Source: Laetmonice hystrix (lineage: Eukaryota). Taken from it: a stretch of DNA of 64,000 nucleotides. Below the pieces are notes generated by a model. The model was given only the letters and a program-made list of their open reading frames with translations. It was not told the origin of the DNA and searched no databases. Shown one piece after another: positions 13,603-16,600 of this stretch. Location: the NCBI GenBank assembly GCA_965235115.1, contig OZ249436.1, forward strand, positions 32,614,001 through 32,678,000. The letters are read 5' to 3'. The position numbers and the translations under genes are program-made. Numbering within the stretch: position 1 is the first letter of the stretch; each line of letters opens with the position of its first letter.

Positions 13603-16600
13603 TTAACCATGATACTCCGATACATATGTCATAGGAAAGTAGCCACGGTAGGTGCGGTTATCACGGGCGATTTCACCCGTCCACCAGTTCATGTCCTTCT
13701 TCTCGACGACTGTGATAATTTCGCCCCGCTTGAATTCTAACTCCTCGTTATCCTGTGGTGTGAAGTCGTAATTGGCCACCACCTTCGGCTGGAAGACAGT
13801 AACGGAAACAATAGACATTAGTGCATTACATTAAACTATATTACTATCAATTAATATATGCATACAGTATACATATTTCTAGGCCACAATTCATTTGGAA
13901 CCACCAGGGCACAAACTGATGCCAAATTCATCGATTTTACTTCAGTTCACTGCTTAAAATTGAAAGAGTTCTGAAACATGAAGTTTGAAATAAAAATTAA
14001 TAATTTCCGTTAAGGAACTCCATACCAGAAACCCCTCTTACCCAACGCAGTTTATGTGAACGAATGTGGACAAATAAAGAACTCCTTGTATCATACATGT
14101 TGCAATTGTTTGCACACATTACACCAGGCAAATAATAACATGTGAAACTTTATTAAAAAGAAGCAGATGAAGCGTAGGTCTGCAGAATGATTTGCATAGA
14201 GGAGGGAAATAATATGGCCACGTCAGTGTCAGGAGGCATACACTCTTCAATTTTCTAATCTGAAAAGAACTTATACTGCTTAAACGTTTTTTAAAGGTTT
14301 ACATTACCACTATCATCATAGGAGGGGTTAGAGAAAATTAAGTAAAATCTGGTCATTTTGGTTCAGCATGTCAACAACAGAAGAGATCTGAAACTACATC
14401 TCAACTTCAAATTACGTCTAATGACCCAGTAAATCCCCAATATATCTTCCTAGGCAGTCTCCAGTTATAAGACTACTACGTCCAATAACAGCCTGTCCCA
14501 CACTATATCGGTCCGCTAAGAGCTACATGTACTGTGTTCCGTATCCAGCTGAACCCTACTTCAACTCTTGGGAGATCAATGAACTGTCAGGGTTTAATTC
14601 TGTTGCATCCCAAATGAAATCTATCAAAATGTACTGTGCCAAAAAGAGTCTAAAATACTGGTAGTCATATTCACCTTAAACCTCACCTATTACCAGGATA
14701 ACTAAAAATATCCCTTAAACTAGAAAAGTGCAAGCATTGGGGCCGAGATATTGTGGACTTGTGGATTTTGCACAATTTTTCGTTTCTCAAAGACCAACCT
14801 GTTCTTGGTATCATTATTATTAAAATACCTAGTTACAACTAAAAGGGAGGGAAAACAGGGTGTCTGGCTCCATGCCTATCATGTTAATGAAAATATTATT
14901 AAGCTTCAATGCTCTGAACAAAGGAGGATCATAGAATGCTATCGCAGGAGATAACTGCACTACAATCTAGCATGTCAAAATGACATTTCTTTTTGAGCAA
15001 AAACTTAATGCTCATATTGTTGCCATAAGAACATGTATGCATTAAGCCTTCGTCAAACTACCGATAATGATAAGATAGTTAATATTTTATAGAGTCTTAA
15101 CGATAAATAGTATGTCAGGGCCGTAACCTGGGGGGAGGGACAAGGTGGCCAACTGCCCCCCTGGGAATTTCAACTCGGCTACGGTCTTGGATGTACAGAC
15201 AGCTAATACTATGGCAGTCCTTTGGAGACAAACTAGCAGTTTCCCTAAATATATCCGATTACCAAATGACAATGATGAATTCCGCCCTGTGGGCTTACCT
15301 TTGAAGTCTAAATGCAAAAGGGGTCAGGTAATGTCATGCCAACATATTCGCCCTTGCCATAATTATAAGACCATTTTATTTTACTGTCTTTACAATACAA
15401 TACAAAATGGTTATCTTTGACTCATATTTGTGCTTAAGCTTTCTCCCAACGTTTGATGCCACCTTGAAGCTCTAGGATGATGTTTTAAATGAAGAGTGTA
15501 TCAAGTGTATTTATGTGTATCAAATGTATTTTCCAGTCCCACAGAGCGTAACCTGTTCAAAAACAGAGGTAGGAAGATTATGAGCCTAACTCAGATCTCA
15601 TCGACCACTCTGGAATGATGTAGGAGTTCCAGCCCAAATACGGCCTCTTGGGCCAATCTCTAGTCTCATTGACCAATCGGGGACCGATTTCTGGATACAA
15701 ACTTTAGTCTCACTGGCCAATGAGCGACAGATTCCTGGATCCATTCTTTTGCTTCACTGGCCAATCGGGGACAGATTTCTGGATACAACCTTTAGTCTCA
15801 CTGGCCAACGAGCGACAGATTCCTGGATCCATCCTTTTGCTTCACTGGCCAATCAGGGAGACTTCTGGATACAACCTCAGGTCTCACTGGTCGATGAGGG
15901 ACATATTCCTGGATCCATCCTTTTGCTTCACTGGCCAATCAGGGACAGATTTCTGGATACAACCTCATGTCTCACTGGTCGATGAGGGACAGATTCCTGG
16001 ATCCATCCTTTTGCTTCACTGGCCAATCGGGGACAGATTTCAGGATACAACCTCAGGTCTCACTGGTCGATGAGGGACAGATTCCTGGATCCATCCTTTT
16101 GCTTCACTGGCCAATCAGGGACAGATTTCTGGATACAACCTCAGGTCTCACTGGTCGATGAGGGACAGATTCCTGGATCCATCCTTTTGCTTCACTGGCC
16201 AATCAGGGACAGATTTCTGGATACAACCTCAGGTCTCACTGGTCGATGAGGGACAGATTCCTGGATCCATCCTTTTGCTTCACTGACTAATCGGGGACAG
16301 ATTTCAGGATACAACTTCTAGTCTCACTGGTCGATGAGGGACAGATTCCTGGATCCATCCTTTTGCTTCACTGGCCAATCAGGGAGACTTCTGGATACAA
16401 CCTCAGGTCTCACTGGTCGATGAGGGACAGATTCCTGGATCCATCCTTTTGCTTCACTGACCAATCCCGGACAGATTTCAGTGGCCTCATCTCAGTGACC
16501 AATCTGGTACGAGTTGATTGAGCCAAGCTAGTATCTCCCTCATCATTCAATTCCTGGCATGAGCCTCCTGTCTCAACGACCAATCAGGAGAAAAAAAAAG

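Follow-up and report, generated by a model that had tools for sequence, protein, structure and literature searches.

A short exon-like element in intron 4 of the GRB2 gene of Laetmonice hystrix is, judging from its sequence, probably a real optional (cassette) microexon specific to this lineage, with a probability of about 0.55. The element is 9 nt long and was placed by sequence reading at 15299..15307 on the minus strand of the window (the whole 64,000-nt stretch of DNA analysed here), where it encodes Thr-Ser-Lys (TSK). This reading is favoured because the splice architecture is rare for a single intron and has the strand and phase of the gene, and because relatives carry inserts at the same exon junction and an eMIC-like segment is encoded in the genome. 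It is disfavoured because no homolog has TSK, the genome-wide tests were null, the pyrimidine tract is short and free of UCUC, and the search tiers were post hoc.

GRB2 is the host gene of the candidate exon

Five coding exons on the minus strand make up the host gene. Exon 1 (23953..24030) starts the N-terminal SH3 domain and is followed by exon 2 (23685..23782). Exon 3 (22760..22900) encodes the first half of the SH2 domain with a clade-specific insert, and the conserved Trp codon is missing from its start. Exon 4 (21700..21859), the upstream neighbour of intron 4, encodes the second half of SH2, and exon 5 (13603..13788) runs from the C-terminal SH3 (C-SH3) domain to the stop codon. Joined directly, the five exons give an open protein of 220 aa with the order SH3-SH2-SH3 and a GRB2-type SH2 domain. 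The best solved-structure match of exon 5 was human GRB2 (1gri), and a homolog search with exon 5 alone returned no match. The domain order is that of human GRB2, Drk and Sem-5, whereas the clade of the window protein stands apart from them by inserts in SH2 and in C-SH3 and by a linker of 5 residues between these two domains. The assignment of the gene to GRB2 and the in-frame phase of the 9-nt site, both made in the earlier note, were right.

Exon 2 splices directly to exon 3 without the SH2 Trp (W60 in human), a residue invariant in 21 aligned relatives. P0082 and P0100 likewise lack it. Assembly error was rejected as the cause, as DNA contigs (19900-24150 covered) cross the boundary without an insertion. 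A canonical 3-nt microexon that would restore the Trp was also rejected: none was found in intron 2, only four longer frames whose splice signals are poor. Most simply read, one codon has truly been lost and the Tyr that follows has moved into its position. W60A is reported to block GRB2 dimerisation (PMC13729540). At the start of exon 3, a donor-like GTATGT directly follows the acceptor AG (22900, minus strand).

Several other features of the window were recorded. Intron 3 contains a very high-copy repeat at 22030-22740, where contig depth rises up to ~95,000 versus ~50. Intron 4 contains an 88-nt tandem repeat (15666-16479) with a 44-nt sub-unit and 9.3 copies, as well as a 94-nt repeat in two copies (19653-19840). 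The neighbours in the window are the C-terminus of a dynein heavy chain (59790-60428, minus strand), a weak PKD-domain match below cut-off (53664-54029, plus strand) and a Hyd_WA propeller repeat (2240-2650, plus strand).

Splice signals of the candidate exon

The candidate lies on the sense strand of intron 4 (21699-13789; 7,911 nt, phase 0). Its frame (15307-15299, minus strand) is stop-free, in phase 0 and bounded by canonical AG/GT. The 3' splice region (15308..15327) consists, by sequence reading, of CTGAC, pyrimidines, TGC and TAG. CTGAC occupies 15327-15323 (-20 to -16) and provides a branch-point-like A at -17; a 7-nt C/T run ends at -10, and TGC stands at -9 to -7. The pyrimidine tract is thus short and near the AG, with no UCUC. 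The closest upstream AG is 45 nt away, giving an AG exclusion zone of 45 nt. On the other side, the exonic AAG is followed by the donor gtaagc (15293..15298), which is near consensus and strong. The element is single-copy in the genome. This splice anatomy, first described in the earlier note, was confirmed on the minus strand over 15327-15293.

A five-residue linker is the norm of the clade

The need for an extra exon had been argued from the human GRB2 linker of 10 residues. We compared relatives recovered by a search with exon 4 and by a profile search. A quick tree by IQ-TREE covered 122 rows (with 44 near-duplicates, mostly arthropod, cnidarian and hagfish, dropped; the careful search is unfinished) and placed the window protein within a set of 59 rows with an SH-aLRT of 96; the equivalent group had 88 in a smaller tree. 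Members of this clade have the SH2 and C-SH3 inserts in common. By name they include Lamellibrachia, Ridgeia, Paralvinella, Dimorphilus and Intoshia, which suggests that the clade is annelid-type.

The linker was exactly 5 residues long in 56 of the 58 clade relatives (32/34 clusters at 90% identity), the nearest rows P0003, P0004 and P0005 included. The exceptions were P0024 with 19 residues and Dimorphilus with 8. Elsewhere in the GRB2 family the linker ranges from 3 to 20 residues. Nine continuous mRNA-type contigs were examined at the nucleotide level: eight carry the direct 5-residue form, and the ninth (L059) carries a 42-nt insert. A profile search of 50% representatives, whose rows were partly parsed, added nothing on the linker of the clade. 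Because the linker has 5 residues in the clade and 3 to 20 elsewhere in the family, the human length is no guide, and the argument for expecting an extra exon was refuted.

These results also bear on whether the 9-nt exon could be constitutive and required for a linker of normal length, as had been suggested. The strong donor and the 8-residue linker of Dimorphilus would agree with such an exon. However, direct joining of exon 4 to exon 5 already yields the clade pattern at every residue. As the 5-residue linker is the clade norm, the protein can do without an extra exon, and a constitutive one is very improbable. TSK or an equivalent optional +3 form was absent from all homologs compared. An exact exon 4/exon 5 junction, direct or with an insert, had no match in JGI metagenome contigs, a set that probably does not cover the species, and the three listed sequencing runs, all of one study, behave as DNA; both outcomes are silent about expression.

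Small inserts at the same junction and other frames of intron 4

Other animals carry inserts at the exon 4/exon 5 junction. In database isoform models of bivalve GRB2, Mya X4 and X5, as well as Dreissena X1 and X3, differ by 10 residues exactly there. The bivalve exons resemble the candidate in being an optional in-frame insert at the same junction, but they add 10 residues instead of 3 or 13, their sequence is unrelated, and the bivalve forms are database models. Dimorphilus has 3 additional residues at the junction, its 8-residue linker being found in the genome model and in related assemblies. The transcript L059/P0024 has its 42-nt insert (+14 aa) at this junction. Two genomic contigs from two related genomes, L130 and L131, group with P0024 (SH-aLRT 98), and each contains a 24-nt AG..GTAAGT frame in GRB2 intron 4 (L130:2040-2063 and L131:4484-4507). 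The two frames share 16 of 18 upstream bases, the last three exon bases and the donor, while the highest-scoring local alignment between the introns lies elsewhere. Judged by eye alone, the L130 frame looks similar to the first 8 residues of the P0024 insert. When the 24-nt element of L130/L131 was aligned to the window intron, no likeness to the 9-nt element was found. No match to the TSK-like element was found in distant introns either (L126, L131 and L132 whole; L127, L129 and L130 partial). In an AlphaFold model of the relative P0021 (mean pLDDT 81), the junction lies in a coil just before the first strand of C-SH3.

The window intron itself has two candidate cassette exons of 39 nt on the minus strand, copy a at 18623..18661 and copy b at 17565..17603. 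The two frames are 38/39 identical, their sole difference is synonymous, and they are the only two copies in the genome. The duplicated block is about 120 nt long (18709-18595 and 17652-17526) and is centred on the 39-nt frame and its acceptor. From sequence, this suggests an exon duplication, and a recent neutral duplication would look similar. An old duplication was not established, with weak homology in the outer flanks (score 33, reached by 1 in 500 shuffles; other intron pieces reach 35). Together with the 9-nt exon, the two 39-nt optional exons would allow six distinct linker lengths, as the earlier note had stated.

Other frames were also noted. In the tandem repeat, nine 21-nt frames with GTGAGA were discarded for their purine-rich acceptors. 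A 12-nt in-frame frame at 18889-18878 (minus strand) has a gtaagt donor and, by eye, a poor GAG acceptor. Insect X1 isoforms (P0209, P0216, P0219 and P0208) have three additional residues, starting with V-S, at the same junction; this looks like donor read-through to a site 9 nt downstream, not a microexon. In oyster GRB2, isoforms P0173/P0175 differ from P0205/P0232/P0196 throughout the second half of SH2, a pattern suggestive of a duplication of exon 4 into mutually exclusive copies.

Chance expectation of the splice architecture

The 9-nt element could be a chance splice-like motif (a pseudo-exon) that is never or only trivially included, so that the protein keeps its 5-residue linker or uses the 39-nt exons alone. 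The GRB2 protein is complete without the 9-nt exon, which is seen in no relative. To this we added a background from the same genome, made of 77 stretches (770 kb; 1.54 Mb for both strands) after a first pass with 37 loci. Five cumulative tiers were applied, namely a GTRAG donor, a pyrimidine tract with no nearby AG, TGC, a branch-point motif and an exon-final AG. The tiers were fitted to the candidate after the site had been seen, and the candidate passes all of them.

Across the successive tiers, 563, 76, 8, 2 and 0 in-frame stop-free background matches were counted, and 1431, 226, 28, 7 and 1 out of frame. The expectation for an intron of the size of intron 4 was 2.9, 0.39, 0.041, 0.010 (95% 0.001-0.037) and at most 0.019. 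Among the candidates of at most 27 nt in intron 4, 11 had a GTRAG donor and only one of these, the 9-nt site, passed the pyrimidine tier. Locally, the match modestly exceeds what chance would give. For the whole 64-kb window on both strands, 0.66 matches are expected at the TGC tier and 0.17 at the branch-point tier, which leaves more room for a chance motif.

Genome-wide, three patterns gave 95, 67 and 54 matches versus 76, 60 and 50 for their reversed-pattern controls, the last pair being for the full architecture, of which the genome thus holds about as many matches as the control. After 18 repeat copies had been collapsed, 25 of the 77 unique matches of one search had in-frame lengths, against 28.9 expected. 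In another, from which 11 repeat copies were removed and in which 18 of the lengths were taken by eye, the figure was 16 of 43, against 15.5 expected. The candidate is included in both counts. Because there was little excess over the controls and no in-frame preference, most genomic look-alikes are noise, and in a genome of 627 Mb chance look-alikes are common. In contrast, an exonic AG end was found (by eye) in just 4 of the 54 full-architecture matches, the candidate among them, and the candidate has the strand and phase of the gene and falls at a junction that bears inserts in relatives. It is among the best of the genome's look-alikes. A chance motif is a serious possibility, somewhat short of even odds.

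The odds of the optional microexon were estimated, not computed. We took a prior of 10-20% for a microexon in intron 4, about 5% of true ones having all the features, and a chance of 0.001-0.005, which gave estimated odds of roughly 1 to 10 before discount. Because of the post hoc tiers and the null genome-wide tests, they were discounted to the probability stated at the outset for a real optional exon, with most of the remainder going to chance and a very small share to a constitutive exon.

Comparison with eMIC-dependent neural microexons

In SRRM3/4 microexons, a UGC is reported to lie between the branch point and the AG in 57/73 and 51/71 of them and is not strictly needed; the pyrimidine tract and branch point are usually farther from the AG, and the most sensitive exons are more compact (10.1101/2024.09.17.613571). 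In fly eMIC exons, another study describes long AG-free zones, UGC, UCUC-rich tracts and CUAAY branch points, weak donors unlike those of mammals, and poor conservation beyond Drosophila (10.1101/2021.02.24.432780). Given that poor conservation, the absence of the 9-nt exon from distant relatives is expected.

The candidate shares several traits with this class: a length within 3-27 nt, a preserved frame, a UGC near the 3' splice site, a long AG exclusion zone and, as in the described mammalian exons, a strong donor. What it lacks is a long pyrimidine tract, rich in UCUC and at a distance from the AG, a feature that is an enrichment and not an absolute rule. It also differs in its branch point, which is just 17 nt from the exon. 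An eMIC-like segment is present in the genome of the window. A spliceable exon at G000:C18:20459758-20459838 (minus strand; locus L133), adjoining RS-rich coding sequence, matches SRRM_C (PF15230) over the Pfam cut-off at positions 29-55 of 67 (E 4.9e-4). The exon that should follow it was not found within the 3-kb locus. That the 9-nt candidate is eMIC-dependent and neural is a tentative suggestion.

Among titles and the starts of abstracts, we found no report of a GRB2 or drk microexon and nothing on annelid microexons; subscription papers, splicing databases and bioRxiv supplements could list GRB2 linker microexons of other species. In PMC13729540, the splice isoform described for human GRB2 is Grb3-3, an SH2 deletion; the review also treats linker flexibility and considers that dimerisation and allostery may be controlled through the SH2-to-C-SH3 linker. 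In passages of 10.64898/2026.09.05.749416, GRB2 features only as the partner of another protein.

Proposed mechanism and significance

That the 9-nt exon is spliced, and in which tissue, by what regulator and with what consequence for the protein, is inferred as follows. By default, the mRNA would join exon 4 to exon 5 and encode the clade-typical 5-residue linker. In some cells the spliceosome may also take the 9-nt exon, aided by the near-consensus donor and the compact region of branch point, pyrimidines and UGC. Inclusion would add T-S-K to the linker coil, and the packing of SH2 against C-SH3 might become looser while both binding surfaces stay untouched. If inclusion is regulated, neuronal eMIC/Srrm234 would be the likeliest activator, although this is put forward with reserve.

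A broader proposal is that GRB2 intron 4 in spiralians is a recurrent recruitment site of small optional exons. The elements cited for it are the 9-nt and duplicated 39-nt elements of the window, the 24-nt element of the L130/L131/P0024 clade and the 30-nt element of bivalves. Independent lineages would then vary a linker that, at 5 residues, is unusually tight, giving it up to six different lengths, and an eMIC-driven neuronal form would retune domain packing and dimerisation. We regard this proposal as speculative and, taken whole, unlikely.

A single 9-nt prediction is ordinary, as many such exons are known. Should the exon prove both real and neural, an annelid-like animal would have an eMIC-type target within a core RTK-Ras adaptor. 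If linker exons did arise convergently across spiralians, GRB2 would offer a well-defined case for studying how microexons evolve repeatedly.
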